From the NCBI GenBank assembly GCA_001002325.1, contig LCNZ01000005.1, forward strand, positions 18,274 through 82,273: a DNA stretch of 64,000 nt, read 5' to 3'. The notes beneath the pieces were generated by a model. The model was not told the origin of the DNA. It was given only the letters and a program-made list of their open reading frames with translations, and did not search any database. Positions 20,467 to 55,431 of the stretch are shown here, piece by piece. This DNA is from Candidatus Amesbacteria bacterium GW2011_GWB1_47_19. GTDB lineage: Bacteria; Patescibacteriota; Microgenomatia; CAZETR01; Amesbacteraceae. A program made the position numbers and the translations under genes. Position 1 is the stretch's first letter. The number at the start of each line of letters is the position of its first letter.

Positions 20467-20511
20467 ATTCAAACGGGGAAGCGTTTCACAAGAAGTCATT
20501 CCCAGCCAGGG

Positions 20512-21698: not shown

Positions 21699-21729
21699 AA
21701 GTTCGGATGTCCCGTCAAACGGGACTATG

Positions 21730-21802: not shown

Positions 21803-21841
21803 GTATAATTGATATCAATATTTTACAATATAATATCCCGG

Positions 21842-22807: not shown

Positions 22808-22821
22808 AAAGACAGAATAAC

Positions 22822-25721: not shown

Positions 25722-25783
25722 TGTACGTTTTCATAGTAGAACGATTTGGGAGGAGAAGTCAAGCGGTAATTATTTGATGTACA

Positions 25784-28484: not shown

Positions 28485-28497
28485 AGATAGAGAAGTG

Positions 28498-29118: not shown

Positions 29119-29183
29119 ATGTATAGTAAATAGGTTGTGATTTAGGGGTTGACATAACAGTAGGCCTGTAGTAGTATAAACGA

Positions 29184-30290
29184 ATGCCAAATAGTGAATT
29201 TCAGCCAAGGTTGCGAGAACGCCTGATGCCGAAGAATAACGGCCCGAGGCTCCCGAAACGTCCGGGTAAAGATTTAAATATTCCTGACTACAGAGAAAGA
29301 GCAGGGGTTGAGACGATGGCCATTGGAGGCATTGTAACGGTTGAAGCCATGAGACGACTGATGGATCAGTATTTTGATGCTCAAGATGGAGTAGCAACCC
29401 AAGCACCCGTTACCACTGAGGCGCCGGTTGTAACCCAGGAACCAACCCAGGAAGCAACTGCGACTCAAGTAGCATCTTCACCCACACCGGAAGCTACTAA
29501 CACGCAGGTTCCTGAACCCACTGCTACCCAACAGGGTTGTGGTAAGCAATATGATATTGACGGAATGAAGAGATACAAATTTGGAGGATTGGAGCATACT
29601 GAACAGACAATCAAAGTCGAACAGGAAAGTGATGTAACCGCAAAAATAAGATATGTACAGGATGTAGATAAATCAGGACGCGAATTTTGTGCTGAAAATG
29701 AATTGCAGACACACGAAACTGCTGTAGTTTATATCGATGGTTGTGGAAAAATTGAAATAACAGACGGCGTTAAAGGTGCAAATGAAGGTACTGATAAATT
29801 CAGTTGCGTTCTTCCGAAAGGTGAATATAAACTCCATGTACAATCGACAGCAAGTGATTACAATGACGTCGGAAGTATTAACATTGGAATAGATATAAAT
29901 ATGGAAGCTGTTCCGACCAAAACGCCGGCATCCCCCACTCCTATTCCTACGACCATGACACCGACTCTTGTTGCCCCGACGATTACACCTACACCTTATC
30001 CCACGGGTTTAGTAACACCTGAGAACTCACCTACACCCCCGTATTATACTGGGACTCCTACTCCTACGGGCGAGTTTCCAACTGCTACTCCTACTCGTAC
30101 AAACGATAATCCCCCCGGCCGTAAGCCGACACCTACTGAAACTTATGTACCAGGTGTTCCTGCACAGCAAAGAGCGATGGTGCCAGTAACCGGAGCTGAA
30201 GTAAACGGTGAGGTGACTGGAGCGGCAATTATGGCTCTGGCCTTTATTTTAGGTAGCATAGCGTATTCAAGAAATCACAGGAGAAGATAA
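29184..30290 (+). CDS. Thr/Pro-rich surface protein with small 4-Cys domain and C-terminal TM plus basic tail
   Basis: TP-rich linkers and C-terminus ...MVPVTGAEVNGEVTGAAIMALAFILGSIAYSRNHRRR. Confidence 0.45.
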   Translation: MPNSEFQPRLRERLMPKNNGPRLPKRPGKDLNIPDYRERAGVETMAIGGIVTVEAMRRLMDQYFDAQDGVATQAPVTTEAPVVTQEPTQEATATQVASSPTPEATNTQVPEPTATQQGCGKQYDIDGMKRYKFGGLEHTEQTIKVEQESDVTAKIRYVQDVDKSGREFCAENELQTHETAVVYIDGCGKIEITDGVKGANEGTDKFSCVLPKGEYKLHVQSTASDYNDVGSINIGIDINMEAVPTKTPASPTPIPTTMTPTLVAPTITPTPYPTGLVTPENSPTPPYYTGTPTPTGEFPTATPTRTNDNPPGRKPTPTETYVPGVPAQQRAMVPVTGAEVNGEVTGAAIMALAFILGSIAYSRNHRRR

Positions 30291-30430
30291 CGAAACAGAA
30301 TAAGAAATAATTTATTAGAAAAAAAGCTAGCACATTGATTAAAACCGCATACGGAATATGCGACGGGTTGAGGGCAGACAGGTGATGACTTACGAACGGA
30401 TTTTTGTGCTAGAAAGTCGGTTCGCTCAAA

Positions 30431-31858
30431 ATGTCTGCCTTCGACCGGCCGCATATGATAGAAACAGATAAGAATCAAATTATTGAACCAGGGAGCCAGT
30501 CTGACCTGGGATTTTTGAGGTCCATAAGAAAAACGGATCATCCCTGGCATGCAGTGTGGAAACAATTTACAGGAGAGAGAAAAGCTCTTGGACAAGGGAA
30601 TTGGTGTGAGTTAAATGTGGCCAGGGAAATAAACGGCCTGAGAAGGGAAGTGCAATTTGCCACATTATCAGAATGGGATTTTGATTTTTCAAAAATGCCC
30701 CAGGTGAAGGAACAATCCGACCAGGTGGCGGGGAGAGTAGCCAGGGAACTGATTAAACTGTCCCGGATGGAGAATCTCAAAACGATAAACGTCAGGCAGC
30801 TGGCCAAATCGGAAATAATCGGTGATGAAGAGGATGCCTGGGAAAAATATGTGAGAGAGACAATCAATAACGGGGAAGAGAGCCGGCCCGATCAAAACGG
30901 GAAAAATGTAAAATTGGCATTCGGGCTGGCAGCCATAGCCCTGGTGGTTGCCGGCAGCTGGTGGGGCTGGAATGTAGTGCATCGGCCGGACATCAAAACG
31001 GGAAATGAGCGGCAAAACAACGAATCCACACCGGTTGCCCGTAAGATGATTTTTGTAACCTGGCCGGAGAACCCCGACCTGCCAGTGGTGCAAAAACGGG
31101 TAAATACCGGTCAACCGGCAGTGCAGAAGACCGGGGACGCTGAAGTGTTCCGTCCGCCTGTGCCATGGTACACAATAAATTGGGAAGGAAATACTATTGA
31201 TTGGTCTATAGATGAACATGTAAGCATACAGGTGGCGGATGAAGATAGCAGGCAGATGAGTCTGGAATTGTCGAATTGGAGATCGCAACACGGAAAAGTA
31301 TCTGAGAGATCCGGAAAAGATAAAGGAAGGGGCGGTTTGGTGGATAAATTGATGAAAAAAGTAGGGATGAAGCCGCTGGAAAGAGGCGTGTCGGGAAAAT
31401 TTAAAAAGGTGGTGGATGATGTGAACGCCTGGTGGAAAAAAGAGGACAAAGCGATGCTTTTCAGGACATCTTCACCTGTCCGGATCGGGATGTTAATGCA
31501 TTCAGGTAGAGTGTTTTTACTGGAACAGGATTTATTGGCGGAGTATTTCCGGAAAAGCGGACAAAATGCGCTTGGGGATATCTTGAGATTAAAAAAAGGC
31601 GATAAAGTACTGGTTCTGAAGGTGGTTTGGGTATCGGAAAGTTTTTCGCAGGATGATTTTTTCAAATCCAAACTGGGAACACCCGCGGAGCCTTGGGAAC
31701 CTACCAGTCTGGATGAAAACGCCTTGGGTATACCTGACGAATACAGATCAAAACCGGGAGTAGATATTGTCTATTGTGCCGGGAAGAGCAAGATTAGCGA
31801 ATCCAGACAGGCAGTAGCTACAGAATTGATCGGAATTGAAGATGCCCCGCACAGATAA
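30431..31858 (+). CDS. hypothetical protein with one central TM
   Basis: 475 aa ORF. No family recognised. Confidence 0.4.
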   Translation: MSAFDRPHMIETDKNQIIEPGSQSDLGFLRSIRKTDHPWHAVWKQFTGERKALGQGNWCELNVAREINGLRREVQFATLSEWDFDFSKMPQVKEQSDQVAGRVARELIKLSRMENLKTINVRQLAKSEIIGDEEDAWEKYVRETINNGEESRPDQNGKNVKLAFGLAAIALVVAGSWWGWNVVHRPDIKTGNERQNNESTPVARKMIFVTWPENPDLPVVQKRVNTGQPAVQKTGDAEVFRPPVPWYTINWEGNTIDWSIDEHVSIQVADEDSRQMSLELSNWRSQHGKVSERSGKDKGRGGLVDKLMKKVGMKPLERGVSGKFKKVVDDVNAWWKKEDKAMLFRTSSPVRIGMLMHSGRVFLLEQDLLAEYFRKSGQNALGDILRLKKGDKVLVLKVVWVSESFSQDDFFKSKLGTPAEPWEPTSLDENALGIPDEYRSKPGVDIVYCAGKSKISESRQAVATELIGIEDAPHR

Positions 31859-31901
31859 CGGACGAGCAGATTTGGTGTAAAATTCGATTGGGCATTTAAA
31901 A

Positions 31902-31973
31902 GCCCCCGTAGCTCAACGGACAGAGTAAGTCCCTTCTAAGGACGAGATGGAGGTTCGATTCCTCCCGGGGGCA
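31902..31973 (+). tRNA. tRNA-Arg (anticodon TCT)
   Basis: Acceptor gcccccg/cgggggc, anticodon loop ctTCTaa, T-arm ggaggttcgattcctcc. Confidence 0.8.
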
Positions 31974-31978
31974 CTTGT

Positions 31979-32050
31979 GGGCCCGTAGCTCAGGGGTAGA
32001 GCAGTCGCCTCTTAAGCGAACGGTCGAAGGTTCGAATCCTTCCGGGCTCA
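31979..32050 (+). tRNA. tRNA-Lys (anticodon CTT)
   Basis: Acceptor gggcccg/cgggctc, anticodon loop ctCTTaa, T-arm gaaggttcgaatccttc. Confidence 0.8.
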
Positions 32051-32055
32051 CTTAA

Positions 32056-32126
32056 TGCGAGGTCGTCTAATGGTAGGACAGCAGACTTTGGATCTGCTTA
32101 TCTTGGTCCGAATCCAAGCCTCGCAG
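32056..32126 (+). tRNA. tRNA-Gln (anticodon TTG)
   Basis: U1:A72 acceptor tgcgagg/cctcgca, anticodon stem gcaga/tctgc with loop ctTTGga, T-arm cttggtccgaatccaag, discriminator G, followed by a T-run. Confidence 0.85.
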
Positions 32127-32180
32127 CTTTTTTATGATAGTGTTAGTGGACGATGTAAGAACCACCTATTGAGGTGTTAT

Positions 32181-32501
32181 CTACGAATTTATAGCCTTAA
32201 TTGCTTGTAATGTAAAAAACATTCCAAATATATAACTTAAGAGATGCGGAGCTATTAATAGACCAAAACTCATAATAAGATGTTTTCGTTGAATCAAGTT
32301 TGTTTTATCAAGTTTTTGCAAGTAGATTAAGTAGTATATGTTTACAGCGATAAATGTAAACCACAAAAGACTCGGCCATAAAAATCCAAAACTATACGCT
32401 CGATTACTTATTTGCGAATAACTGTATAACCTTTCAATAGAACCCCAAAGAAAAACTACGTTTATGAGTGTACTTACAGCTATCATTATTTTTGCTACCA
32501 T
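32181..32501 (-). CDS. hypothetical small membrane protein
   Basis: 106 aa with 3 predicted TM. Confidence 0.35.
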   Translation of the reverse strand: MVAKIMIAVSTLINVVFLWGSIERLYSYSQISNRAYSFGFLWPSLLWFTFIAVNIYYLIYLQKLDKTNLIQRKHLIMSFGLLIAPHLLSYIFGMFFTLQAIKAINS

Positions 32502-32541
32502 AATTGAAGTGTAGCATAATAAGTTCCAACATAGTCAACCA

Positions 32542-32898
32542 GTGCCAGCAGAAAAAATGAAAATAATTAATAAGAAAATATCTTTGAAAGAATTGGAGAA
32601 GCTGGCGGCAGGGAAATTCGGAATGCTGGTAAAGGCGGTTGTGGATATTGAACATAAAATCATGGCTGTTGATGGCGAATTGCATTCCGACGAAGAAGGA
32701 TTTCTGATATCGCAAGGATCCAAACAATCAAATTTATGGGGTATAATTCTTTACCCTGAACTTAACGGCGAAGAGTTTGTGGAATTCGATTCCATGATAA
32801 ATATCAGACCTTCGGCGGGGAATAACTCGAGATCAGTTGAAGATCCGAAAGTTAGAAAAATAATTATCGATATAGTGAATGATTTGGTAGAAAAATGA
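32542..32898 (+). CDS. hypothetical protein
   Basis: 118 aa ORF. ATGA overlap with the next gene. Confidence 0.4.
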   Translation: MPAEKMKIINKKISLKELEKLAAGKFGMLVKAVVDIEHKIMAVDGELHSDEEGFLISQGSKQSNLWGIILYPELNGEEFVEFDSMINIRPSAGNNSRSVEDPKVRKIIIDIVNDLVEK

Positions 32899-33236
32899 AT
32901 ACCTGGCACAAGGGATTGACTTCGGAAAGATGGGGGGAAATGTCATTAGCCGAACAGATGGCTAACGTAGCCAGCGAGGTGGGCAGGACAATCAGCTGGA
33001 GGAATAAAGGAAATACGGAGTACAGCAGACTGGCGTTTGAGAGAGCTCTTGAACTATTAACATTGACGAAAACATCTTTTAAAAAGGAGGAATCTATATT
33101 AAAGGAAATAAGCCGGGTTTATGAAGCGTTGGCGGATTATTTCCTGGGAGAAAACAAATTTGGGTCAAGCGATGAATTGTGGGAGAAGTATTTTGCGCCT
33201 TTTGAATACCTGGCAGCCCGGGAACGATTAGAGTAA
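32895..33236 (+). CDS. hypothetical all-alpha protein (MazG/NTP-pyrophosphatase-like pattern, weak)
   Basis: 113 aa ORF. Helical LAEQMANVASEVGRTI segment. Weak call. Confidence 0.35.
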   Translation: MNTWHKGLTSERWGEMSLAEQMANVASEVGRTISWRNKGNTEYSRLAFERALELLTLTKTSFKKEESILKEISRVYEALADYFLGENKFGSSDELWEKYFAPFEYLAARERLE

Positions 33237-33251
33237 TATAAATATTGACTT

Positions 33252-34796
33252 ATGATATCGGCGGAATTAGAGAATTATCTGAAGAATTGCCGGGACAGCG
33301 GAGCCAAGTTTGACGAGGTGGAAAAAGCACTTTCTATACAAGGTTATTCTTCAAACCAGATATCTGAGGCAGGACAGTGGTACAACCCGGTCGTCCCCAA
33401 AACAAAAATCCGGAAACCGCTGGCGGTGGTACTGCTGATGCTGGCGATATTTTTGTTGGCGGGAACGGGGGCGGCTGCATATCTGGTAGCCGCGGAAAAA
33501 ATTAAAATAAACAACCCCGGACTGGTAGTGGGAATCCAGAAGGTGGTATACAGTATCCCCTTTGTCCCCAAAACGCCCAAGATGGTGATTTTGAAGGCAG
33601 TGGAAGCACATAAAAAGATTTCCCGGAATACCTGGGAACTATCAATCTCCGGAAGAGGAATGGGATCGGAATTGGGGGAAATTTTCGGATCCGACACCAC
33701 GGACCTGCTTATTTCCGGTTATTCGGACTTTTCCGATTCGGAAAACGTCAGGTTTAAAATATCAGCAAATCTGGGGAAAGAGGTGCAGGTCGAACTGCGG
33801 AAGAAAGACAAAATACTGTATGCAAATGTATCCAAGATGCCGTTGGCTATATATGCATTTATCGGATTGGAACCGGATAAAGTAAAGCTGATATTGGCCA
33901 ACTGGATAGCGATAGACGTTTCGGGACTGAATACGGAGGCCAGGAATTTATTGTCGGAAATTCCGGAAAGCAGCAGACAGTCACAGACGCAGGAAACGAC
34001 ACAGGAAATATTGGAGAAGTTGCTGAATGAAGAAGTCATTCCCCTGTCAAGCATGACAACCGATAAAAGCCAGGGATATGCGGTCTATAAAATTGTATTT
34101 AGGGCTTCACCGGAACAATTGGACAGAATTGAAGAGGCGGCGGGAACAGATCCGGGCAGGCTGAAATTTTCAGAATGGCTGAAGAACCCGGTGATTACTC
34201 TATTCATAGATAAGGAGAAGAATCTGGTAAGAAGGGCGGAAGCGACCTTCACTATAGATTACGACCAGCCGGAAACGTCGATTCCCCTAATAGGCAGCGG
34301 GGAGGAAAAGGCGGATGTGGCAGTGGTATTAAAATTGGACAATTTCGGGGAAGAGATGATCATTGATGTTCCGGATAAATCACTGACTCCCGATGAATTT
34401 TACCAGATGGTGATGGATGCGGAACCCGGGGGATTATTGACGATTAACCCCGATAGACAGTTAGCCCGGGTACGGGATGCCAAAAGAAGGGCGGATATTT
34501 CCGCCATACTATCCGCAACTTACCAGTTTACGGCCGATAACAGAGGGATATTACCGGTGACGATAGGGACGGAGGCGAAAAAGATATCCGAGTCCGGGGC
34601 GAATCTGTGTAAATACCTGGTACCGGAATACCTGGCTGCATTTCCCATTGATCCGAGACAGGGAGACGGTAAGAATTTTGTGAATTGCCCGAAAGGGTAT
34701 GATACCGGATACACGATTTTTAAGGATAAAAACGACAGGATTACAATTTTGGCACCCATGTCCGAAGGGAATGAAATAGTTACGGTTACCCGGTGA
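33252..34796 (+). CDS. membrane protein with cytosolic N-domain, one TM, large extracytoplasmic region ending in a pilin-like (GspG-like) globular domain
   Basis: C-terminal RVRDAKRRADISAILSATYQFTADNRGILP...DPRQGDG...GYDTGYTIF follows the pseudopilin head-domain pattern. Confidence 0.4.
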   Translation: MISAELENYLKNCRDSGAKFDEVEKALSIQGYSSNQISEAGQWYNPVVPKTKIRKPLAVVLLMLAIFLLAGTGAAAYLVAAEKIKINNPGLVVGIQKVVYSIPFVPKTPKMVILKAVEAHKKISRNTWELSISGRGMGSELGEIFGSDTTDLLISGYSDFSDSENVRFKISANLGKEVQVELRKKDKILYANVSKMPLAIYAFIGLEPDKVKLILANWIAIDVSGLNTEARNLLSEIPESSRQSQTQETTQEILEKLLNEEVIPLSSMTTDKSQGYAVYKIVFRASPEQLDRIEEAAGTDPGRLKFSEWLKNPVITLFIDKEKNLVRRAEATFTIDYDQPETSIPLIGSGEEKADVAVVLKLDNFGEEMIIDVPDKSLTPDEFYQMVMDAEPGGLLTINPDRQLARVRDAKRRADISAILSATYQFTADNRGILPVTIGTEAKKISESGANLCKYLVPEYLAAFPIDPRQGDGKNFVNCPKGYDTGYTIFKDKNDRITILAPMSEGNEIVTVTR

Positions 34797-40365: not shown

Positions 40366-41673
40366 TCAAATTTCAGACAGGAATTCCCGTTTGCGGTGGA
40401 GATGGTGGAGGCGGCGGGAAAAGCGATGGGCTTCGTCCCGCAGGCGAATTAAAAGCTGTAGACCCGGATGATAACGAGGCAGGTTAATTTCGGTAAAGCC
40501 GACGGGTGAAGGAATAATCAGGGTTTCGATGCGTTTAGCGAGGGCGAGGATAGGGATTAGGTTATAGGGGTTAGGGTCCAGATTTTTCAAAATACTTAAC
40601 TGGGGTTTGCCCCCATCCAGGACTATCAGGTCCGGGGCAGGCCAATCGGTCCGTTTGAGACGACGGTTAAGAATACCCAGAAGAGATGCCACATCATCGG
40701 CTGAATCGGGGGTACGAACAGTAAAATGGCGGTAATCCCGGTGAGAAATACGACCGTCTACAGCTACAGCCATGGCGGCAGTAGCTGACCCGCCTCTCAG
40801 ATGCGATACATCGTACATTTCAATCCGTTTCAAGGATTTGAGATAGGGTAAGCAGGGATTCAGAATTTGAATTAGGGAGGCCAGGGCTTCAGATCGCAGG
40901 TCATGAAGTAAATTGGGGTTTTGCAGATAAAGATCCGGTGAAGACGGAGGGTGCTGTAAATAGTTAAGGGCAGTCAGACGGTCACGCAACAGGGCAGCCG
41001 ATTCATAATTCTGATTTTTAGACGCTGTCGACATGGCTGTCTCCAGTTGCCGGTTAACAGAAATGAAATCACCTTTGAGCAGACGGCGCAAACGGGCTAT
41101 GTTTTTTCGGTAATCGAGAATTTGTGGCGGTGACAGGACATCTCCGGGACAAGGACGACAGAGACCTAAATGGGAGTACAGACAGGGACGTTTGACCGGC
41201 CGGGGTAAGCTGCAGAAAGGCGTAACGGTACGGAACCAGCGCAGGATCCGGGAAGGTAAACGGCGGTTGAGGAAGGGACCGGCAACGGCCAGGCGGGATT
41301 GGTGATTGATCAGGGGGCGGGGAAATTTTTCGCGGGTAAGATGTATATGGTACGGTGTTTTGTCATCTTTGGACACCGAGTTGAATCCGGGTTTGAGTTT
41401 TCGGATTAAACTGGATTCCAGGAGCAAAGCTTCGACTTCGGAAATGACCTCAATATATTCCAGGGAAATGATACGGCTAACAAGAAGCGAAGTTTTAGGA
41501 CCCAGGCGTACAGGAGATTGAAAATAGGATTTAACCCGGTTTTTAAGGTTTTTGGCTTTGCCGACGTAGAGGATTTTGCCTGCGGCGTCTTTGAAGAAAT
41601 AGACTCCAGGTGCGGTAGGCAATGAGCGCCACAAAGATGAGCGAGACGGCCGTAAAGATGATAAACGCGACAT
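40366..41673 (-). CDS. uvrC: Excinuclease ABC subunit C (short form)
   Basis: N-terminal GIY-YIG domain PGVYFFKDAAGKILYVGKAKNLKNRVKSYF and the UvrC endonuclease region. The 5' 131 nt overlap the upstream transglutaminase-like ORF, so the true start may be an internal TTG. Confidence 0.85.
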   Translation of the reverse strand: MSRLSSLRPSRSSLWRSLPTAPGVYFFKDAAGKILYVGKAKNLKNRVKSYFQSPVRLGPKTSLLVSRIISLEYIEVISEVEALLLESSLIRKLKPGFNSVSKDDKTPYHIHLTREKFPRPLINHQSRLAVAGPFLNRRLPSRILRWFRTVTPFCSLPRPVKRPCLYSHLGLCRPCPGDVLSPPQILDYRKNIARLRRLLKGDFISVNRQLETAMSTASKNQNYESAALLRDRLTALNYLQHPPSSPDLYLQNPNLLHDLRSEALASLIQILNPCLPYLKSLKRIEMYDVSHLRGGSATAAMAVAVDGRISHRDYRHFTVRTPDSADDVASLLGILNRRLKRTDWPAPDLIVLDGGKPQLSILKNLDPNPYNLIPILALAKRIETLIIPSPVGFTEINLPRYHPGLQLLIRLRDEAHRFSRRLHHLHRKREFLSEI

Positions 41674-43384
41674 ACCAACCCAGGAGCAGCCGGGCAGGGA
41701 TATTATATGTCACACCAGCGCTACCGGCGGAAACTAGAAGAGATTTTGGAGAAATATCAGGAATATATGATGAGAATAATGACAGGGGATAGGTTTGGCT
41801 GGAAAAAGGCGGCATTACACCCAGGTCAGAAGGAGGAACGGGGGAAATATTCAGATTTTCGGGTTTGAGCAACAGCCGGGGATGATTTACTGACTGACCG
41901 GAGGGGTTGGAGATCCTGAGGTCCGAAAAAAATATCGGCAGGGGAAGAATCTGGAAAGGCGGAGTCCAGGAAATTGAAAGGGAGGGAGGTAGATATTCAC
42001 GGAATTTGGACAAAGTAATTTCTACATCCCGGGAACTGGAACCGGTATCGTAGAGACCGGCCGCGACAGGATAGGAAGCGTCGACACCATGAATGGTAAA
42101 TGCGAAGTGATTGAAGTCAAATTTAGAAAAATAATCCAAACCCCCGGTGGTGTTTTCCCAAGTGGGATCAACACTAATCCAAGCCCCAGACTGGCTGTCC
42201 CAGTATTCAGGCCAAGCGTGAAGAATGTCTTGCTGGAGACTGAGGGGACGGAGGCGGCTGTCCGTGGTATATGCGTAACCGTTCAGCTCCCTGGCAGGGA
42301 TACCGGCCGCATGGGCAAGGGTGATGAAAAGATCAGTAAAGTCCTGGCAGCGGCTTTTTGATGGGTCATCGAGGATTGCGGACGATGTACGCCGGGAGGC
42401 TGCGGGCCCGATTTCGGAATAATCGTAATCCAATAGTTTGACTACGTAATCATAAATATCGCGGGGCGTACGATGTTTTTTGACCAGATCTGCAATCCGG
42501 TCATCTGAAACAATCCAGTAATCCGAAGGCTGTGTGTAAACTGACAAATCAGTAGGCGGGTCCGAAACCGCACCGGGTTCAGCCAGCAGATGAACCTGCC
42601 CGGAAGCAGTAACTTTCAGTTCCTGACCGGCGGTCAGTAAATACTGGGCCAACCAGTTACCATCGGCATCAGCCAGGACATTTTGGGGGGCGGGATTTAA
42701 CGAATCGTAAAATACTTTTTGATATGCGGTATCCGGAGGTAAAGCTATCTCGGTAAGAATCGGCTCGGAACGGGTATTGGTAAGCGGGTAAGACAGGCGG
42801 AAATCAAAAACCTGAAAATTGCCAAACGCTGCGGAAATACCTACGGAATCCGCAACTGAGGGGGAGAAGAGATAAACATTGTCAACACTTTCGCGGATTG
42901 ATGACGAAGGCGGAGGGGATATATAAGCCGGATCTCCGAATGATGAAGGAACAATCAGGCGGAAATCATGAGAGATTCGGGGAAGGTTAATTTCCCAAAT
43001 CTGGCCCTTTTTAACTGCGGGCTGGCCTTCGTAACGGATAGTAAAAACGCGGGTCTGGTCTTTACCCACCAGGGGTGTGGGAAATTCGATGGTAATAAGA
43101 TATGTGTCCGATCCCTCGGAAACTGTAGTGGTTTTGAGCGGCCCACCGGTATCGGAGGCGGAAAAGTTTTTTGGCAGCTCGCCGGAAAACTTCAGCTGAT
43201 AAGAAGGAGCGTAAATTTTGGACTGCAGGTTGGTGAGTGTTACCTGCTGGGTAACTGCAGAGATACCGGAGGAGGCGAAACGATAATCCATGGAGACGGT
43301 AGATTCGAAATTCGCTGCATGAGCGGAGGAGAGGGTGAGGGTAAGGAATTGAAAGACAAACAGAGAGAATAATCGATACCGCAT
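41543..43384 (-). CDS. Transglutaminase-like domain protein, secreted with C-terminal TM
   Basis: Cys-His-Asp core CQDFTDLFITLAHAAGIPAR...HAWPEYW...D. Signal peptide and C-terminal TM with basic tail. Confidence 0.7.
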   Translation of the reverse strand: MRYRLFSLFVFQFLTLTLSSAHAANFESTVSMDYRFASSGISAVTQQVTLTNLQSKIYAPSYQLKFSGELPKNFSASDTGGPLKTTTVSEGSDTYLITIEFPTPLVGKDQTRVFTIRYEGQPAVKKGQIWEINLPRISHDFRLIVPSSFGDPAYISPPPSSSIRESVDNVYLFSPSVADSVGISAAFGNFQVFDFRLSYPLTNTRSEPILTEIALPPDTAYQKVFYDSLNPAPQNVLADADGNWLAQYLLTAGQELKVTASGQVHLLAEPGAVSDPPTDLSVYTQPSDYWIVSDDRIADLVKKHRTPRDIYDYVVKLLDYDYSEIGPAASRRTSSAILDDPSKSRCQDFTDLFITLAHAAGIPARELNGYAYTTDSRLRPLSLQQDILHAWPEYWDSQSGAWISVDPTWENTTGGLDYFSKFDFNHFAFTIHGVDASYPVAAGLYDTGSSSRDVEITLSKFREYLPPSLSISWTPPFQILPLPIFFSDLRISNPSGQSVNHPRLLLKPENLNISPVPPSDLGVMPPFSSQTYPLSLFSSYIPDISPKSLLVSAGSAGVTYNIPARLLLGWYVAFIIFTAVSLIFVALIAYRTWSLFLQRRRRQNPLRRQSQKP

Positions 43385-43396
43385 ACGGTAATTTTA

Positions 43397-46237
43397 CTAT
43401 TTCAGGAACCGCCCCGTAGGGGAACCGGAGACGGATGCCAGTTTATGAGGCGGTCCGGCAGCAATCAAACGCCCGCCGTCATCGCCACCTTCGGGACCGA
43501 GCTCTATAATCCAGTCGGCATTTTTTATAACATCCAAATTATGCTCGATGACCACCACGGTGTTACCCGCGGCAACCAAACGGTGAAGGACCAAAAGAAG
43601 TTTTTCCAAATCGGCAAAATGCAGTCCGGTGGTGGGTTCGTCGAGTATATAAAAAGCCCTTTTGCCCGTAGAACGCTTGGATAATTCGGTGGCTAGCTTT
43701 ACCCGCTGGGCTTCACCTCCCGAAAGCGTTGGTGCAGGTTGTCCGAGGCGAATATAATCCAGGCCAACATCCTTTAAAGTCCGCAGTTTTTCCTGAGCCT
43801 GGGGAATGTTGGCAAAAAAATCCAGAGCCTCCTCGACTGTCATTTCTAACACGTCGGCGATGTTTTTATTTTTGAATGAGACTTCCAGAGTTTCGGAATT
43901 GTAGCGTGAACCCCCACAGAGTTCACATTTGACGTAAACATCGGGCAAAAACTGCATTTCTATTTTGATCTGTCCTTCCCCCTGGCAATTTTCGCAGCGG
44001 CCGCCCCTGACGTTAAATGAAAACCTACCGGGCAGATAACCGCGGATACGGGCTTGGGAGGTGAGGGCGAAAATATCGCGGACCGGCGTAAAAAGTCCGG
44101 TGTATGTAGCGGGATTTGAGCGGGGGGTGCGGCCGATGGGAGACTGATCGACCATGATGACCCGGCTAATACTGTCCATTCCTTCCAAACGATCAAACGT
44201 ACCTGGTTTTTCGCGGTGTTCCCGGCTCAAGTGAGATGCCAGGGCATGATATAAAATATCTATCAAAAGAGTAGATTTACCTGAACCGGAAACACCGGCA
44301 ACAACTATGAATTTTCCCAAAGGGAAACTGACGTCAATATGCTGCAAATTGTGTTCGGAAGCACCGTATACAGTCAGTTGATCAGTGGTCAGATGACTGG
44401 TGAGGGGGAGCGGCCGGAGAGTGATCTGTTTTTTACCGGACAGATATTGACCGGTAAGGGAAGCGGGATCGGAAGCGATATGGCGGGGAGTACCTCGGGA
44501 AACAATTTTGCCCCCGTGATCTCCGGCTCCTGGCCCGAAATCGATAATCCAGTCACTCTGATTCATCATATCCCGGTCGTGTTCGACTACAATTACAGAG
44601 TTTCCCAGGTCACGCAGGCGTTTGAGAGTGTCGATCAAGCGTTGATTGTCCCGCTGATGCAGACCAATCGACGGTTCATCCAGAACGTATAAAACCCCTG
44701 ACAGACCGCTGCCAATCTGCGAAGCCAGGCGAATACGCTGGGCTTCTCCGCCGGCCAGGGAGTTAGCCGGGCGGTCCAGTGTCAGATAATCCAAGCCCAC
44801 GGACACAAGAAAATTAAGCCGTTCGGATATTTCCTTGAGTATGGGACGGGAGACAGTCTGATCACGCGAATTCAATGAAGGAAGAGAGCCAAGAACCGAC
44901 AAAGTTCCGGTTATGGACATACGGGTAATTTCAACAATGGATTTTGCGTCAATAGTTACGGAAAGGGCTTCCGGTTTGAGACGAGCTCCACGGCAGGAAG
45001 GGCAAATTTCCTTGCGCATATATTTTTCTATCTCGTTTCTTATGAAGTCGGATTGGGTTTGACGGTGGCGGCGGGAGAGATTGGGAATAATGCCTTCAAA
45101 AGAAATGATTTCATCGGTACCGAATAAAAGGATTTTCTTCTGAGACGGGGTTAATTCCTTAATCGGGATACGCAGGGGGACGATGGCGCCGATTTTTTGG
45201 GAAAACCAGGAATCGTAACTGAAAATATTGGCATAAGGAAGTATTCCCCCCTCACTGATAGTCAGATTGGGATTGAGGATGAGATTTTCGTCAATTTTGA
45301 GAAGTGTTCCCAACCCTGTGCAGGTAGTACAAGCACCATGGGGAGAATTGAAGGAAAACATCCGGGGTTCGATGGGGGGAAGAGATATATTGTCGACGGG
45401 ACAGGAAAATTTTTCAGAAAATAAGTGGTCATCCAGATGTGAAGGACGATCTGGCAGATCGAAAGATTTGTCAAGAATTTCCGTGACTATGCACAGACCC
45501 TCAGACAGTTTTAGTGCCTGTTCGACCGAGTCAAACAGGCGGCTGCGCAACGAGGAAATATCGACCAACTGCGGTTTGGTGACCGAAAGACGATCTATCA
45601 CCACGTCGATGGCGTGCTTGTTGTTTTTCAGAAGAAAAACGTCTTCGTCCAGTCCTACAATCTTGCCGTCGATACGAATCTGAGAATAACCTTTTTGGCG
45701 AAGACTGCCAAAAAGGTCTTTAAATTCTCCTTTTCTATCTCTGATTACGGGAGACAGCAGCAGAAAACGGAATTGCCTGTGAGCAGAAAGTTTTTCGCGG
45801 GTAAGGACAAATATTTGTTCCACGATTTGCTGGGCGGACATTTGAGATATCTCTCGGCCGCATTTCGGACAGTGGGGGTGACCGATCCGGGCGAATAAAA
45901 GACGGAGATAGTCGTAAATTTCGGTGACCGTACCGACCGTGGAACGGGGATTATGGGAAGCACTTTTCTGATCTATGGAAATGGCCGGGGAAAGACCGGT
46001 AATATTGTCTACATCGGGTTTGTCCATGACTCCCAGGAATTGACGGGCATAAGAGGATAATGATTCCACGTAACGCCGCTGGCCTTCGGCATAGATGGTA
46101 TCAAATGCCATTGAGCTTTTGCCGGAACCTGATAGACCGGTAAAGACCACCAACTTATTTTTGGGAATGTCCAAATCGACATTTTTCAGGTTATGTTCAC
46201 GGGCACCCCTGACTTTGATGAAATCGTTCATTTTCAA
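43397..46237 (-). CDS. uvrA: Excinuclease ABC subunit A
   Basis: Two ABC ATPase modules with Walker A (GLSGSGKSS, GVSGSGKST) and zinc-finger CxxC pairs. The better start is probably the ATG at 46231 (MNDFIKVRGAREHNL). Confidence 0.95.
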   Translation of the reverse strand: MKMNDFIKVRGAREHNLKNVDLDIPKNKLVVFTGLSGSGKSSMAFDTIYAEGQRRYVESLSSYARQFLGVMDKPDVDNITGLSPAISIDQKSASHNPRSTVGTVTEIYDYLRLLFARIGHPHCPKCGREISQMSAQQIVEQIFVLTREKLSAHRQFRFLLLSPVIRDRKGEFKDLFGSLRQKGYSQIRIDGKIVGLDEDVFLLKNNKHAIDVVIDRLSVTKPQLVDISSLRSRLFDSVEQALKLSEGLCIVTEILDKSFDLPDRPSHLDDHLFSEKFSCPVDNISLPPIEPRMFSFNSPHGACTTCTGLGTLLKIDENLILNPNLTISEGGILPYANIFSYDSWFSQKIGAIVPLRIPIKELTPSQKKILLFGTDEIISFEGIIPNLSRRHRQTQSDFIRNEIEKYMRKEICPSCRGARLKPEALSVTIDAKSIVEITRMSITGTLSVLGSLPSLNSRDQTVSRPILKEISERLNFLVSVGLDYLTLDRPANSLAGGEAQRIRLASQIGSGLSGVLYVLDEPSIGLHQRDNQRLIDTLKRLRDLGNSVIVVEHDRDMMNQSDWIIDFGPGAGDHGGKIVSRGTPRHIASDPASLTGQYLSGKKQITLRPLPLTSHLTTDQLTVYGASEHNLQHIDVSFPLGKFIVVAGVSGSGKSTLLIDILYHALASHLSREHREKPGTFDRLEGMDSISRVIMVDQSPIGRTPRSNPATYTGLFTPVRDIFALTSQARIRGYLPGRFSFNVRGGRCENCQGEGQIKIEMQFLPDVYVKCELCGGSRYNSETLEVSFKNKNIADVLEMTVEEALDFFANIPQAQEKLRTLKDVGLDYIRLGQPAPTLSGGEAQRVKLATELSKRSTGKRAFYILDEPTTGLHFADLEKLLLVLHRLVAAGNTVVVIEHNLDVIKNADWIIELGPEGGDDGGRLIAAGPPHKLASVSGSPTGRFLK

Positions 46238-46243
46238 ACAATT

Positions 46244-46273
46244 ATTGTACTACGGGTTTCGGGTTTTGTTCAA
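46244..46273 (-). promoter_or_regulatory. candidate sigma70-type promoter of uvrA (TTGAAC-N18-TACAAT), near-leaderless
   Basis: Read on the minus strand, TTGAAC (46273-46268) and TACAAT (46249-46244). The -10 ends 12 nt before the ATG at 46231. Confidence 0.35.
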
Positions 46274-46532
46274 GTATCAGAAGAGGTTATTTGGAAAGAT
46301 GCTTACCATCCTGGGTCACATGTTTTTTTAAGCATTCCGGTTTCCTGGTTTGAGGAGCTTTTTGGGGATTTCCGGGATGATGAAGTTTTTCGGTCCGGGG
46401 CTTGGGTTTCCAACCTTTCATGAATTCCGCCGATACCATGGTATTTTTATAATTAAATGAAGCTGACTATTTGTCAATAAGAGATTTTAGAGAATCCTTT
46501 ATAATATGCTATAGGTTATGATATAATAACGA

Positions 46533-46781
46533 ATGGGAAAAAATGAAACAGAAAGCGATATTCATTGTGAGGTGATAGGCGATGTATGTAAGCATATAGG
46601 TGAAGGAAGGGGGAAATGTATGTTTTGTACGGATGCAACGAGACACTTTATTGATTTGGTAAAAAAACTGGGTATTAAAAAAGGTGAAATTAAAACCGAC
46701 GGGTCTGAGGACGGTAACAGATTTACGGTGTATACAGATAATGGCTGGAGACGGAGTATAAGGAGCGGTAGGATCAGCTAA
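46533..46781 (+). CDS. hypothetical small Cys-rich protein
   Basis: 82 aa with HCEVIGDVCKH and GKCMFC (possible zinc knuckle). Lies between uvrA and uvrB on the opposite strand. Confidence 0.3.
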   Translation: MGKNETESDIHCEVIGDVCKHIGEGRGKCMFCTDATRHFIDLVKKLGIKKGEIKTDGSEDGNRFTVYTDNGWRRSIRSGRIS

Positions 46782-46787
46782 GTTCAG

Positions 46788-48818
46788 TTACTTATCTTTT
46801 AAACCTCGAATCTCGGCTATACGGTCGCGGATTTTGGCGGCAAGTTCGAAATCCAGGTTTTTGGCGGCCCTGATCATGTCACGGTTCATTATTTTTACCA
46901 GTTTGGTGAGGTCCGAAGGGGTAAGCTGGAAAACACGAGACATGTCCACATCGGAAGCGTCAAGTGAACGGCCTTTGAGAATCTGTGCGGGATCGAGTTT
47001 GACCGGAGAGTCTTCGGTTGCTGCCTCGACAATCCTTTCCCGGATGGGCTTGGTAATACTGGCAGGAATAATATGGTGTTTGAGGTTATATTCCAGCTGG
47101 ATCTCTCTCCGGCGTTCGACCTCGGAGATAGCATGGCGCATGGAGTCAGTAATGTGATCAGCATACATAATCACCTGACCGTCTACATGACGGGCAGCTC
47201 TGCCCATGGTCTGAATCAGGGACGTTCGGGATCGCAAAAATCCTTCCTTGTCCGCATCCAAAATTGCCACCAGCGAAACTTCGGGTAAATCCAAACCTTC
47301 GCGCAATAAATTGATGCCTACTACCACATCGTAAGTTCCGGAGCGCAAATCGCTGAGCACATCCAGGCGGGTTAAGGTCTCGATATCCGCATGCAGATAA
47401 TGGACTTTTATGCCGTGTTCCTGAAGGTAGGCGGACAGATCTTCAGCCATCCTTTTGGTAAGGGTGGTAACCAGAACCCGCTGACCGCGGGAGGTGCGAT
47501 CTGAGATATGAGAAACGAGAGATGAAATTTGATTTTTGGTCGGTAGAACCAGGATCTGTGGGTCAACCAGGCCGGTGGGACGGATGAGCTGTTCGACTAT
47601 TTGACCCGATGACAGGGATATTTCCCAGTCGTTGGGAGTAGCAGAGGTGTACATTGTCAACCCCATACGCCTCTGGAATTCGTCAAACTTGAGCGGCCGG
47701 TTGTCCAGAGCAGAAGGCAAGCGGAAACCAAAATCTATAAGTGTCTGCTTGCGGGATCTGTCTCCGTTGTACATTCCGCGGACCTGAGGGACCGTAATGT
47801 GAGACTCGTCGATAATCAATAAGTAATCCTTGGGAAAATAATCAAGAAGACTGTATGGCGGGTCACCGGGATTACGACCGTCAAAATAACGGGAGTAATT
47901 TTCGATGCCGTTGACGTATCCCAATTCGCGGATCATTTCCAAATCGTAGGTGACACGCTGATGTAGCCGATGCGCCTCCAGAATTTTTCCTGATCCGCGC
48001 AGCAACTTTTCCTGTGAGGTCAAGTCGGAAGTGATCTGAGAAAATATTTCATTCTGATTATCGCGTGAAGCGATGTAATGCTTGGCGGGATAGATCACAT
48101 GATTGATGATTGGAGATTCAGGATTGATGATTTCTCCCGTAAAGGAATTAATTTTTTCAATTTTTGTGATTTTTATTCCGTCGTGACGGATGCGGACGGC
48201 CGTATCCTCATAAGCCGGATAGATATCGATTACTTCACCCCTGAGACGGTAAGTTCCCCGGCGGAAGTCAAAATCAGAGCGGGAATATTGAAGATGGTTG
48301 AGGCGCAGCGTGATCTGTTCCCGGGTAACTTTCAAACCGGGAACAAGTTCAAGTACAGATTTGCCATATTCAGCCGGTGAGCCGAGGTTGTAGATACATG
48401 AGACCGAAGCTACAACCAGAGTATCTTTGCGGGTAAGCAGGTTCGTGGTAGCTGCTAAACGAAGCTTGTCGATCTCGGCGTTGATGTCTGTTTCTTTTTC
48501 GATGTAAGTGTCGGTTGAGGGAATATATGCTTCGGGCTGGTAATAATCGTAATAGGACACAAAATATGAGACAGCGTTGTCAGGGAAATATTCTTTGAAT
48601 TCCTGATAAAGCTGGGCAGCTAGAGTCTTGTTATGGGAAATTATCAGAGTGGGTTTCTGATATGCAGCAATAACGTTGGCCATGGTAAAAGTTTTGCCGC
48701 TGCCGGTAACTCCCAGAAGCACCTGATGGGACTGGCCGGACTTCAGACCAGCGATCAATTTTTCAATCGCCTGTGGCTGATCACCGGTGGCATGATATGG
48801 AGAGACTAATTTAAACAT
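46788..48818 (-). CDS. uvrB: Excinuclease ABC subunit B
   Basis: Helicase motifs (GVTGSGKT, DESH) and the C-terminal UvrB/UvrC interaction domain. Confidence 0.95.
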   Translation of the reverse strand: MFKLVSPYHATGDQPQAIEKLIAGLKSGQSHQVLLGVTGSGKTFTMANVIAAYQKPTLIISHNKTLAAQLYQEFKEYFPDNAVSYFVSYYDYYQPEAYIPSTDTYIEKETDINAEIDKLRLAATTNLLTRKDTLVVASVSCIYNLGSPAEYGKSVLELVPGLKVTREQITLRLNHLQYSRSDFDFRRGTYRLRGEVIDIYPAYEDTAVRIRHDGIKITKIEKINSFTGEIINPESPIINHVIYPAKHYIASRDNQNEIFSQITSDLTSQEKLLRGSGKILEAHRLHQRVTYDLEMIRELGYVNGIENYSRYFDGRNPGDPPYSLLDYFPKDYLLIIDESHITVPQVRGMYNGDRSRKQTLIDFGFRLPSALDNRPLKFDEFQRRMGLTMYTSATPNDWEISLSSGQIVEQLIRPTGLVDPQILVLPTKNQISSLVSHISDRTSRGQRVLVTTLTKRMAEDLSAYLQEHGIKVHYLHADIETLTRLDVLSDLRSGTYDVVVGINLLREGLDLPEVSLVAILDADKEGFLRSRTSLIQTMGRAARHVDGQVIMYADHITDSMRHAISEVERRREIQLEYNLKHHIIPASITKPIRERIVEAATEDSPVKLDPAQILKGRSLDASDVDMSRVFQLTPSDLTKLVKIMNRDMIRAAKNLDFELAAKIRDRIAEIRGLKDK

Positions 48819-48830
48819 TTATTATGAGTA

Positions 48831-48860
48831 TTGACATTTGGGTAATGTTCGGTTTATATT
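48831..48860 (+). promoter_or_regulatory. candidate lexA promoter TTGACA-N17-TTATAT with embedded imperfect palindrome (possible SOS operator)
   Basis: TTGACA at 48831-48836 and TTATAT at 48854-48859, 7 nt before the lexA ATG. The spacer contains GACATttgggtaATGTTC. Confidence 0.4.
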
Positions 48861-48866
48861 ATAGAT

Positions 48867-49511
48867 ATGCCGGTGACACTTTACAACAGACAGAGACAAA
48901 TTTTAGATTTTATCGCCCAATTTATCCAGAGGAACGGTTACTCCCCTACTCTTCAGGAAATTGCTGGAGCTTTGGGAGTATCTTCCCTGGCAACGGTTCA
49001 TGAACACTTGGAAGCAATGTCTAAAAAAGGCATCATCAAAAGGTTTGAGGGCACGGTCCGGGGGATAGAAATCCTGGATAAGGAGGTGGCGGCCCGCCAG
49101 GCGGCGGGCCCAGCGGCCGTGGAACTGCCTATCTTAGGATTTATTGCCGCCGGGCAGCCGATTGAGCCGTTTACCGATCCCAACGCCACGTTCGGAGTAC
49201 CGCCACTGATGGTGTCACCGAAAAAGAGATGTTTCGTCCTGCAGGTAAAAGGTGAATCCATGATTGAAGCGGGGATTTTTGACAGGGACTACGTGGTGAT
49301 TGAACAAACAGAAACTGCAAAAGACGGGGAAGTGGTGGTAGCTTTGTTGGATAACGGGTTTGCTACCCTGAAGAGATTCTTTAAGGAGGCTACCAGAATC
49401 CGCCTGGAACCGGCCAATTCCAGCATGTCCCCTATTTTCGTGGCAGGTGATAAGGTCAGGATACAGGGGAAAGTAGTGGGAGTTATCAGAAGGTATAATC
49501 AGGTAAATTAG
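48867..49511 (+). CDS. lexA: LexA repressor
   Basis: N-terminal wHTH (LTxRQxxIL, TLQEIA) and C-terminal S24 peptidase with the Ser...Lys dyad region (VKGESMIEAGI...VVALLDNGFATLKRF). Confidence 0.85.
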   Translation: MPVTLYNRQRQILDFIAQFIQRNGYSPTLQEIAGALGVSSLATVHEHLEAMSKKGIIKRFEGTVRGIEILDKEVAARQAAGPAAVELPILGFIAAGQPIEPFTDPNATFGVPPLMVSPKKRCFVLQVKGESMIEAGIFDRDYVVIEQTETAKDGEVVVALLDNGFATLKRFFKEATRIRLEPANSSMSPIFVAGDKVRIQGKVVGVIRRYNQVN

Positions 49512-53106: not shown

Positions 53107-54171
53107 GTGATAGCATTAACTCAAAAGCGGATGATAATTGAATTAATTGAACCCAGGAAAATAATTTCGTCGATGGGAAGCGATACGGTGGAGGTGAGGA
53201 TGGTGACTGCGGCCGGGGAATATACGGCATCCGTTCCGGCAGGAATCTCCGCCGGAAAATATGAGGTATCAAAAGTGTCTCCTGAGGAAGCGATAGTCCA
53301 AATAGATGAATTTAAGAAAGAATTAACAGGGAAGGAATTTAATCAGCTGGGGTTGGACGAAATATTAAATAAATCCAATTTGGGGGGAAATGCCAAACTG
53401 GCGGTGTCGGCGGCTTTCTGGAAATCGGAAGTCAGATCAAAACTCAGAAAATATCAAAAATTTCCTAAGCTGTTCACACTAATGTTTGAAGGAGGCAAAC
53501 ACGGAAATCCGGAAATTACCATACAGGAAATTGCAGTGGTGGAAGATACAGTAAATACAGCTGTGATTGATTTTCAGGTGCTGAAAAAATATCTTGAAAA
53601 TCAAGGGACGGAGACGACCGTGGGGGCTGAAGGGGCATTTTCTCCGAAAGACTGGGATAACGAACGAGTTTTACAAACCATAAGCGATGTGTTTGGAGAG
53701 AAAAAAATGGCTTTGGATATGGCCGGAAGTTTTATTCCCGATTCATTGAATATAAAGGAAATTATCGCAAAGTATCCGGTGTTTTCCGTGGAGGATCCGT
53801 TTGACGATGAAAGCTGGAATGAATGGAAAACATTTTATGAAGATTATAAAGACAAAATATTGATAGTAGGTGACGATTTGACAGCGACGAACCCAATCCG
53901 ATTGCAGATGGCAACCAATCCCAGAGTTATTAATGCAATGGTAATTAAGCCAAACCAGAACGGGACGATCAGCGGAACCATAGAAACTGCCAAAATAGCC
54001 AGAGAAAACGGTATAGCAACTGTGGTTTCCCACCGGGGTGAAGAGACGGATGATGACTGGCTGGTAGACCTGGCTTTAGAAATAGAAGCTGATTATGTGA
54101 AGTTCGGCGGATTGGAAAGAGGAGAACGGGTGGCAAAGTATAACAGACTCAGAGAATTGGGAATGACATAA
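53107..54171 (+). CDS. Enolase-like paralog (short, 354 aa) with conserved catalytic and metal residues
   Basis: DTVEVRMVTAAGEYTASVPAGIS...; ALDMAGSF; SVEDPFDDESW; IVGDDLTATN; VIKPNQNGTISGT; SHRGEETDD; VKFGG. Confidence 0.6.
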   Translation: MIALTQKRMIIELIEPRKIISSMGSDTVEVRMVTAAGEYTASVPAGISAGKYEVSKVSPEEAIVQIDEFKKELTGKEFNQLGLDEILNKSNLGGNAKLAVSAAFWKSEVRSKLRKYQKFPKLFTLMFEGGKHGNPEITIQEIAVVEDTVNTAVIDFQVLKKYLENQGTETTVGAEGAFSPKDWDNERVLQTISDVFGEKKMALDMAGSFIPDSLNIKEIIAKYPVFSVEDPFDDESWNEWKTFYEDYKDKILIVGDDLTATNPIRLQMATNPRVINAMVIKPNQNGTISGTIETAKIARENGIATVVSHRGEETDDDWLVDLALEIEADYVKFGGLERGERVAKYNRLRELGMT

Positions 54172-55431
54172 TCAACGAGTGGAAGAAATTTCGGTATCGA
54201 TGGAAAGGAAATGGTTGTACTTGGCTACTCTTTCTCCGCGAGCAGGCGCACCGAATTTGGCATAATCCGCTCCTACCCCGACGGCAAAGTCGGCAATAAA
54301 GGTGTCGTTGGTCTCTCCTGAACGGTGGGTAATGTTAATTTTCCATCCGGCGTCCCTGGCTTTTTTAACCGCTGCGATGGCCTCGGAAACGGTGCCGATT
54401 TGATTTGGTTTGATGATAGCCCCATTGCAGGCTTTTTCGGCGATAGCTTTGGAAATTTTGGTCAGGTTGGTAGCCAGCAAATCGTCGCCGACGATAGTGG
54501 TATTCTGGCCAAGCTCCGAAGTAATCTGAGTCCAACCTTTCCAGTCATTTTCGTGCAGAGGGTCTTCTAAAAGACGTAAATGGTATTGCTTGTTGAGATC
54601 CCGAAGATACTCTATGAATTCGGAAGTATCCATGGGAGAGCTGCGATCCTTGATGGTATATCGGCCATCCTTGTAAAAACTATCGGAAGCTACGTCCAAG
54701 CCAAGTTCCACGTCGATCTGGGGTTGTTTCTTGCACTCAATAATCGCCTCGCTTAATATTTCCAGTGCATCCAGATTGGTAAAAAGATTTGGAGCAAAAC
54801 CGCCTTCGTCACCGACGCTGTGAATCGCACCCCGACGGACAAGCAGATTTTTTATCGAATGGTAAATTTCAGCGCCGGTTTGGAGCATTACTGAGAATGT
54901 GGATTTACGGCTGGGGATGATATGGAACTCCTGAAAATCCAGATTACCGGCGCCATGCTTGCCGCCGTTGATCATATTGAAAACAGGAGTGGGGATAAAC
55001 AGCTGGGAGCTGTTTTCAGCCAGTGTGGCAATATAGCGATAAAGCGGAAGAGAAGCCGCCTGGGCCAGAACTTTTGTGACAGACATAGAGACTCCCAACA
55101 GGGAGTTAGCCCCGAAACGGCTCTTGCTGGGGGTACCGTCCAATTGATTTAATATGTTATCCACCTCTTTGACTGTGGAAAAATCCATGCCCACAAGCTT
55201 GGCAGCAATCTCCCGGTTTACGTGGCCCACTGCCTGCAGAACACCTTTTCCGAAATAACGATTGGGGTCGTTGTCGCGCAGTTCAGACGAGTCCGGTATA
55301 CCGATTGAGGATCCCGAAGGGACTGAAGAAACACCGTATTGGCCGGTGTCAAGTATGGCTATGACTTCAACCGTAGGAGTAGCCCGTGAATCCAGGATTT
55401 CTCTGGCGTAAAGCTGTTTAAGTTTGGCCAT
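54172..55431 (-). CDS. eno: Enolase
   Basis: ILDSRATPTVEV, IKPNQIGTVSEAI, SHRSGETNDTFIADFAV, full-length 419 aa. Confidence 0.92.
   Translation of the reverse strand: MAKLKQLYAREILDSRATPTVEVIAILDTGQYGVSSVPSGSSIGIPDSSELRDNDPNRYFGKGVLQAVGHVNREIAAKLVGMDFSTVKEVDNILNQLDGTPSKSRFGANSLLGVSMSVTKVLAQAASLPLYRYIATLAENSSQLFIPTPVFNMINGGKHGAGNLDFQEFHIIPSRKSTFSVMLQTGAEIYHSIKNLLVRRGAIHSVGDEGGFAPNLFTNLDALEILSEAIIECKKQPQIDVELGLDVASDSFYKDGRYTIKDRSSPMDTSEFIEYLRDLNKQYHLRLLEDPLHENDWKGWTQITSELGQNTTIVGDDLLATNLTKISKAIAEKACNGAIIKPNQIGTVSEAIAAVKKARDAGWKINITHRSGETNDTFIADFAVGVGADYAKFGAPARGERVAKYNHFLSIDTEISSTR

Follow-up and report, generated by a model that had tools for sequence, protein, structure and literature searches.

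A direct-repeat candidate LexA operator at the divergent lexA and uvrB promoters of a Microgenomates excision-repair locus

When all three UvrABC genes lie beside lexA, is the cluster a specialized SOS regulon, and which of the other genes lodged in it belong to that regulon? The question is raised by positions 40366 to 49511 of a 64,000-nucleotide stretch (here called the window, whose coordinates are used throughout) of contig LCNZ01000005.1, assembly GCA_001002325.1, from Candidatus Amesbacteria bacterium GW2011_GWB1_47_19, which belongs to the candidate phyla radiation (CPR, or Patescibacteria). An original prediction made from the sequence had described this region as a compact SOS regulon, clustered in an unusual way, in which a transglutaminase (TGase)-like gene and a small Cys-rich open reading frame (ORF) were candidates for SOS control. 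The locus is a complete UvrABC set with a divergent lexA, real but largely ordinary as an SOS and nucleotide excision repair (NER) locus. The preferred reading, to which a probability of about 0.7 is assigned, is that a single direct-repeat LexA operator overlies the divergent lexA and uvrB promoters of this Microgenomates NER locus.

The genes themselves are readily identified. lexA (48867-49511, + strand, 214 aa) and uvrB (46788-48818, - strand, 676 aa) are divergent, with start codons 48 bp apart. On the uvrB strand follow uvrA (43397-46231, ORF to 46237) and a short form of uvrC (40366-41673, 435 aa); the true uvrA start is probably the ATG at 46231, giving the 944 aa called by gene callers. 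The ORF list and domain scans thus bear out the gene order and every coordinate of the original prediction. UvrA, UvrB, and LexA exceed their NCBIfam equivalog cut-offs (UvrA, NF001503, 1379 bits; UvrB, NF003673, 983 bits, with Pfam matches; LexA, TIGR00498, 203.7 bits against a cut-off of 111). LexA has winged helix-turn-helix (PF01726) and S24 peptidase (PF00717) domains, aligns end to end with solved LexA structures including 3K2Z, and retains the S24 peptidase motifs FIAAGQP (the Ala-Gly cleavage site), KGESM (Ser), and TLKRF (Lys). The lexA product is accordingly predicted to be a canonical, cleavable-type LexA, with RecA-stimulated cleavage and operator binding to be expected of it.

The candidate operator is TTTGGGTAATGTTCGGTT (48837-48854, + strand), a direct repeat of the form TTYGG-N6-TTYGG with an 11-bp period. 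It lies where two divergent predicted promoters interleave (48831-48886, both strands), and these promoters are the top two matches of a promoter scan in 10 kb. The lexA promoter, PlexA, reads TTGACA-18-TATATT (48831-48860, + strand, 11/12 matches); the lexA ATG stands 6-7 nt past its -10 box, implying that the lexA mRNA is leaderless, with a predicted start at about 48867. The uvrB promoter, PuvrB, reads TTGTAA-17-TATAAT (48886-48858, - strand, 10/12 matches), its -35 box falls within the lexA coding sequence, and transcription is predicted to begin near 48851. The repeat falls between the -35 and -10 boxes of PlexA and covers the predicted uvrB transcript from about +1 to about +15, and because it occupies both the PlexA spacer and the first ~15 nt of that transcript, a bound LexA dimer would block both promoters. 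Judged from the sequence, LexA is the obvious candidate to bind the repeat. In the proposed mechanism, lexA and uvrB would be read divergently from the interleaved promoters, uvrB would be transcribed alone, and RecA-stimulated self-cleavage of LexA would free both promoters.

Comparison with related genomes supports the candidate operator. A UvrB scan that kept one genome per species yielded 80 loci from Amesbacteria, Gottesmanbacteria, Roizmanbacteria, Woesebacteria, and relatives (UvrB identity 55-77%). Alignment of the region upstream of lexA in about 20 species displays one layout: a -35 TTGACA, the TTYGG-N6-TTYGG repeat, a -10 box, and an ATG 6-7 nt further on. Among Amesbacteria-clade relatives having lexA, the repeat ends 11-12 nt upstream of the lexA start codon in 12 of 12. 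A position weight matrix (PWM) trained on the sites of 18 relatives, with the window's own species left out, gives the window site 24.4 bits, compared with a mean of 14.5 and a maximum of 19.5 for the best sites of 30 shuffles. Across 1.37 Mb of sequence from relatives, 25 sites score at least 19 bits, and 23 of these are upstream of lexA, uvrB, or uvrA; the remaining two are within coding sequence, and shuffled loci yield 0-1 such sites.

The independent, and hence informative, sites are those that were not used in training. One is in locus L013, where an 864-bp insertion has parted uvrB from lexA and a second copy of the repeat stands directly upstream of uvrB. Another is in the divergent region between uvrB and uvrA of locus L080, with no lexA nearby. 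Three more, at 16-18 bits, are found upstream of displaced uvrA genes (loci L034, L042, and L069). Furthermore, of 30 loci with a divergent lexA, 20 have a site of at least 15 bits no more than 300 nt upstream of uvrB; of 40 without, one does.

A search for the operator upstream of other genes, proposed with the original prediction, had a mixed outcome: sites at lexA, uvrB, and uvrA recur in relatives, but the 64-kb window holds a single strong site. In a simple pattern search of the window, the lexA site was the sole exact match to the repeat. One-mismatch matches at 6941 and 61353 looked unrelated and were set aside. The Cheo box, GAAC-N4-GTTC, was also discarded as a candidate, with 16 window matches against 26 expected and none near these promoters.

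The uvrA gene has a promoter of its own, TTGAAC-18-TACAAT (46273-46244, - strand, promoter scan), within a promoter region at 46244-46275 and with a predicted transcript start at about 46237. The promoter core, AAAACCCGAAAC, does not vary among the Amesbacteria-clade species (12 of 12). On the + strand, AAAACCCGAAAC contains one good operator unit, TTCGGGT; 11 nt further on stands TTCAA, the -35 box, which forms a degenerate second unit. Weak LexA control could be exerted through the one good unit, and the odds that uvrA is under LexA control, perhaps weakly, are put at about even. The mechanism proposes that uvrA would head a second, translationally coupled unit comprising uvrA, the TGase-like envelope gene, and the short uvrC, and continuing into secG and other housekeeping genes. 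The TGase-like gene has no operator site of its own.

The same data can be read without any SOS control, with the repeat as a piece of promoter architecture (spacer or discriminator) or the site of another regulator and the cluster as a constitutive housekeeping block. Such a reading draws on the overlap of the repeat with promoter elements, so that its conservation could in part be promoter conservation, on the presence of unrelated housekeeping genes in the block, and on the single strong site in 64 kb. It does not easily explain why the repeat appears at lexA, uvrB, and uvrA in both orientations and at varied positions relative to the -35 and -10 boxes, why L013 kept two copies when the insertion parted lexA and uvrB, or why 39 of 40 loci without an adjacent lexA have no repeat upstream of uvrB. 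In addition, autoregulation of LexA at its own promoter is the norm. Taken together, these points make the absence of SOS control unlikely.

The proposal of one LexA operator over the lexA and uvrB promoters nonetheless has several observations weighing against it. The window has only that single strong site, none of the sequences examined contained recA or offered another classical SOS gene, ruvC (63000-63500) is without an operator site, and the uvrA site reaches only 12.0 bits by the PWM, a score within chance for 64 kb. The repeat was spotted by eye and then used to choose the training sites, so the PWM evidence is partly circular. The contrast between loci with and without lexA is confounded by phylogeny, as the lexA-absent loci are mostly Roizmanbacteria-like. 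LexA binding, the starts of transcription, and leaderless translation are each inferences from sequence. With these points counted, the compact SOS regulon of the original prediction stands in part: it gains a conserved candidate operator common to the lexA and uvrB promoters (24.4 bits), but the clustering is ordinary and the small ORF is without an operator.

Two weaker operator-like sites were observed apart from the locus. One, of 15.2 bits (6939-6956, + strand), is followed by a promoter-like TTGACA...TAAGAT pair, about 80 nt, and a terminator-like hairpin with a T run. The whole element (6939-7075, + strand) adjoins a tRNA-Leu gene, is without an Rfam match, and may be a small RNA. The other, at L087 9069-9086, about 430 nt past the right end of the window, scores 14.2 bits, which is borderline and within chance, and is all that a 10-kb extension of the sequence beyond ruvC yielded; it is 64-81 nt upstream of a gene for a 133-aa protein without a Pfam family.

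Is the cluster peculiar to this genome? The uvrABC genes had been described as normally scattered and their proximity here as unusual; across the 80 related species the cluster is instead the rule, a lineage-wide Microgenomates arrangement. Mapping the window proteins onto the 80 loci reveals a recurrent order of TP-methylase, VTT/DedA, lexA (divergent), uvrB, uvrA, TGase, uvrC, a holin-4-like gene, secG, and a solute-binding protein. Where enough downstream sequence is available, uvrA is no more than 1.3 kb from uvrB in 55 of 68 species loci, and in 6 more it follows after larger insertions. The TGase-like gene separates uvrA and uvrC in 50 of the 56 loci having both on one strand; in 5 of the 56, one of them a Parcubacteria record, uvrA and uvrC are directly adjacent without it. 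Divergent lexA is less constant: where upstream sequence suffices, it is found in 28 of 68 loci (no more than 300 nt from uvrB in 22 of those) and is missing at most Roizmanbacteria-titled loci. Because the block also holds non-repair genes, a functional reading of adjacency alone is weakened.

The junction between uvrB and uvrA is the variable part of this arrangement. The spacer is 559 nt in the window; in relatives it is anything between a few nt and 6.5 kb long and contains unrelated inserts. It appears as a hot spot of species-specific insertions (L010, L011, L013, L015, L016, L022, L034, and L042), among them inserts of 4.7-6.5 kb in L011, L022, L034, and L042 and, in L015 and L016, an antisense gene for a Nudix-like protein of 174 aa. 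The window's own spacer has no Rfam match at E values up to 1 and no meaningful repeats; over the whole window, Rfam finds only tRNAs.

Two small ORFs, both annotated as hypothetical proteins, occupy this spacer. The one singled out in the original prediction as Cys-rich and SOS-controlled encodes 82 aa (46533-46781, + strand). It is present as described, but with only 4 Cys residues the label Cys-rich was generous. It is absent from the 80 related species (tblastn and phmmer), also at the same site, where unrelated inserts occur. No credible homologue was found in a word-indexed library of 5.8e9 sequences, in phage genomes, in Pfam, or in NCBIfam, nor by an exhaustive HMMER search of 1.84e9 representatives. 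The sole other match in the 1.84e9 set, a repetitive 720-aa protein, was rejected, its E value of 1.6e-5 being summed over six repeats. The lack of conservation in 80 related species and two billion-scale protein libraries, the missing operator, and codon usage like that of spurious ORFs all speak against the proposed SOS control.

A rival reading takes the ORF for a real, lineage-specific SOS effector, such as a small inhibitor of cell division. Small size and poor conservation are typical of SOS division inhibitors, which in other bacteria are often found beside lexA. The 82-aa ORF is called by gene callers in every assembly, and it has a good extended -10 promoter, TGnTATAAT (46498-46527, + strand; 46498-46781 with the ORF), placed for a leaderless transcript like that of lexA, with a terminator-like hairpin downstream. 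The ORF may therefore be expressed. Against a genuine effector, no operator of at least 8 bits is found near that promoter (46498-46533), and the codon log-likelihood ratio (LLR) of 0.025 falls in the middle of the spurious-ORF distribution and under every 82-codon chunk of real genes, at a GC content of 40%. The product is without a transmembrane (TM) segment, and its single-sequence AlphaFold2 (AF2) model, with a predicted local distance difference test (pLDDT) score of 54.8, is uninformative. These features, with the absence of homologues, make a real SOS effector very unlikely; the 82-aa ORF is an orphan of this one species, lodged at a variable insertion site and not belonging to a conserved SOS set. 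It is the eye-catching ORF and the wrong one to follow up.

Its neighbor, which had not been flagged, looks real. This 50-aa ORF (46439-46287, - strand), basic and rich in Pro and Lys, has host-like codon usage (LLR 0.299) and a leaderless-type promoter (46449-46477, - strand, promoter scan). L014 (tblastn E 2.7e-6), L008, and L021 have syntenic homologues that share the motif PEC[LQ]KKH, and the homologues end 22-29 nt upstream of the uvrA promoter core.

The TGase-like gene (41543-43384, - strand, 613 aa) starts 12 nt downstream of the uvrA stop codon. Its product matches PF01841 (Transglut_core) with 57 bits and comprises a signal peptide ending AHA|A, a beta-sandwich of about 270 residues, the TGase core, more beta domains, a C-terminal TM helix, and an Arg-rich tail (RRRR). 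A C346/H389/D406 triad is invariant among 27 homologues of 36-51% identity. The homologues carry Microgenomates names, in keeping with a CPR source genome. The protein is identical residue for residue on at least 24 contigs in ENA, JGI, and NCBI assemblies, including the metagenome-assembled genome GCA_003488165.1, and the strain assemblies are clonal, with at most 1 real SNP per 12-22 kb. The AF2 model (pLDDT 82.9) has as its best PDB match 3ISR, a putative cysteine protease, followed by TG2, TG3, and factor XIII, and its N-terminal part resembles the ribophorin-type sandwiches of oligosaccharyltransferase (OST). These features predict a Cys-His-Asp enzyme that lies outside the cytoplasm and is anchored in the membrane. 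The protein had been described as secreted, but the C-terminal helix predicts an anchored rather than a free protein.

The 3' end of the TGase-like gene overlaps the 5' end of uvrC by 131 nt (41543-41673, - strand), exactly as the original prediction had it. Within this overlap one frame encodes the TM helix and basic tail of the TGase-like protein, and another encodes UvrC residues 1-43, including the GIY-YIG signature. Since the codons of that signature (~41607-41554) lie wholly within the TGase ORF, the overlap is true dual coding and not a start-codon miscall. All 11 Amesbacteria-clade species have the overlap, at 101-131 nt, and both overlap peptides are conserved in the clade (...AWSLYLQ(K/R)...RR for the TGase tail and ...LP..PGVYIFK...G..IYVGKAKNL for the UvrC N terminus). 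Outside the clade, 29 of 39 measurable loci have a tight junction, either an overlap of 1-56 nt or a gap of no more than 12 nt, and in 19 of the 39 the overlap is 1-11 nt. This sequence arrangement suggests that translation of the TGase-like gene is coupled to that of uvrC.

UvrC is itself a short form. GIY-YIG (PF01541), a Cys cluster, UVR (PF02151), and RNase H-like endonuclease (PF08459) regions are recognized, with alignments to the structures 1YD6 and 2NRT. Its TIGR00194 score is 262.3 bits, under the equivalog cut-off of 285.45. The alignment ends at residue 167 of 220 of the Thermotoga maritima structure 2NRT, and thus the C-terminal tandem helix-hairpin-helix domain, (HhH)2, is absent. 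UvrC is 403-454 aa long in all 49 relatives with a measurable full ORF, and (HhH)2 is missing in each; no separate (HhH)2 gene was found in the cluster. Compared with canonical UvrC (TIGR00194; T. maritima 1YCZ and 2NRT), the protein shares the GIY-YIG, four-Cys, UVR, and RNase H-like regions but has a shorter linker in addition to the missing (HhH)2, with 435 aa against the 574 positions of the TIGR00194 model. With a UvrC that has no (HhH)2, one may ask how the 5' incision comes to be positioned.

What, then, is a TGase-like enzyme doing between uvrA and uvrC? In the preferred reading the TGase-like protein is a long-standing operon passenger and not a repair factor. It could also be a DNA-damage-inducible product in Microgenomates, co-transcribed from a LexA-controlled uvrA promoter and coupled to UvrC, a proposal that is doubtful and quite unlikely; if it were true, episymbiotic cells would remodel their envelope or attachment surface within the damage response. 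That it is an excision-repair partner, as the TGase fold of eukaryotic Rad4/XPC, an inactivated domain, and its place between uvrA and uvrC with coupling to uvrC might suggest, is scarcely credible, given an AHA-A signal peptide, a C-terminal TM helix, and an RRRR tail that put it outside the cytoplasm and so argue against a direct repair role of the Rad4/XPC kind, an intact and invariant triad unlike that of the Rad4 domain, structural neighbors that are a putative Cys protease, protein-crosslinking transglutaminases, and an OST-like beta-sandwich, and 5 loci in which uvrA and uvrC adjoin without it.

Among known systems, the closest arrangement is uvrBA of Bacillus subtilis (LexA/DinR, Cheo box), where the uvrB promoter carries a LexA operator and uvrA lies next to uvrB on the same strand. 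The present locus differs in that uvrC is clustered too, a divergent lexA shares the operator, and a separate promoter precedes uvrA; it also includes a passenger envelope gene and a truncated UvrC, and its operator is a direct repeat instead of the GAAC-N4-GTTC palindrome. Escherichia coli likewise has the damage-recognition genes uvrA and uvrB as LexA targets and an autoregulated lexA, but its uvr genes are scattered, its operator is the palindrome CTGT-N8-ACAG, and its UvrC is full length with (HhH)2. A direct repeat has a precedent in the alphaproteobacterial LexA box, given as GTTC-N7-GTTC in PMC8565304. It also has an 11-bp period, and it differs in its unit, which here is TTYGG (CCRAA on the other strand) and not GTTC.

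The rest of the window offers a few features unconnected with repair. Two enolase-like genes are arranged tail to tail with no spacer (53107-54171, + strand, and 54172-55431, - strand), one a full 419-aa enolase and the other a 354-aa ORF that matches Enolase_N and Enolase_C in part. Six large ORFs of 368-767 aa at 18069-34796 are without a Pfam match at E 1e-5. Fifteen tRNA genes are contained in 29 kb (3282-32127), on both strands and in several small clusters. Of thirty-two 2-kb windows, all except two show a positive GC skew, of up to 0.27, independent of gene strand; going by its title, a Microgenomates genome paper reports a disparity in strand composition that is unusual.

LexA control of excision-repair genes is textbook knowledge, and the locus mainly adds an example. 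A comparative study of the Patescibacteria SOS network, with its LexA motif and regulon, was reportedly made by Sanchez-Osuna, Barbe and Erill in 2017 (Environ Microbiol 19:3465; cited in PMC8565304). The locus is very probably a member of that network, and the regulatory part of the present finding is probably already known. Of use to those who work on CPR organisms is that two interleaved, partly leaderless promoters appear to have one direct-repeat operator in common, and that a stretch of 101-131 nt codes in two frames for the GIY-YIG active-site region and the tail of a membrane protein. For the Microgenomates as a whole, the uvrB / uvrA-TGase-uvrC order provides a stable marker block.

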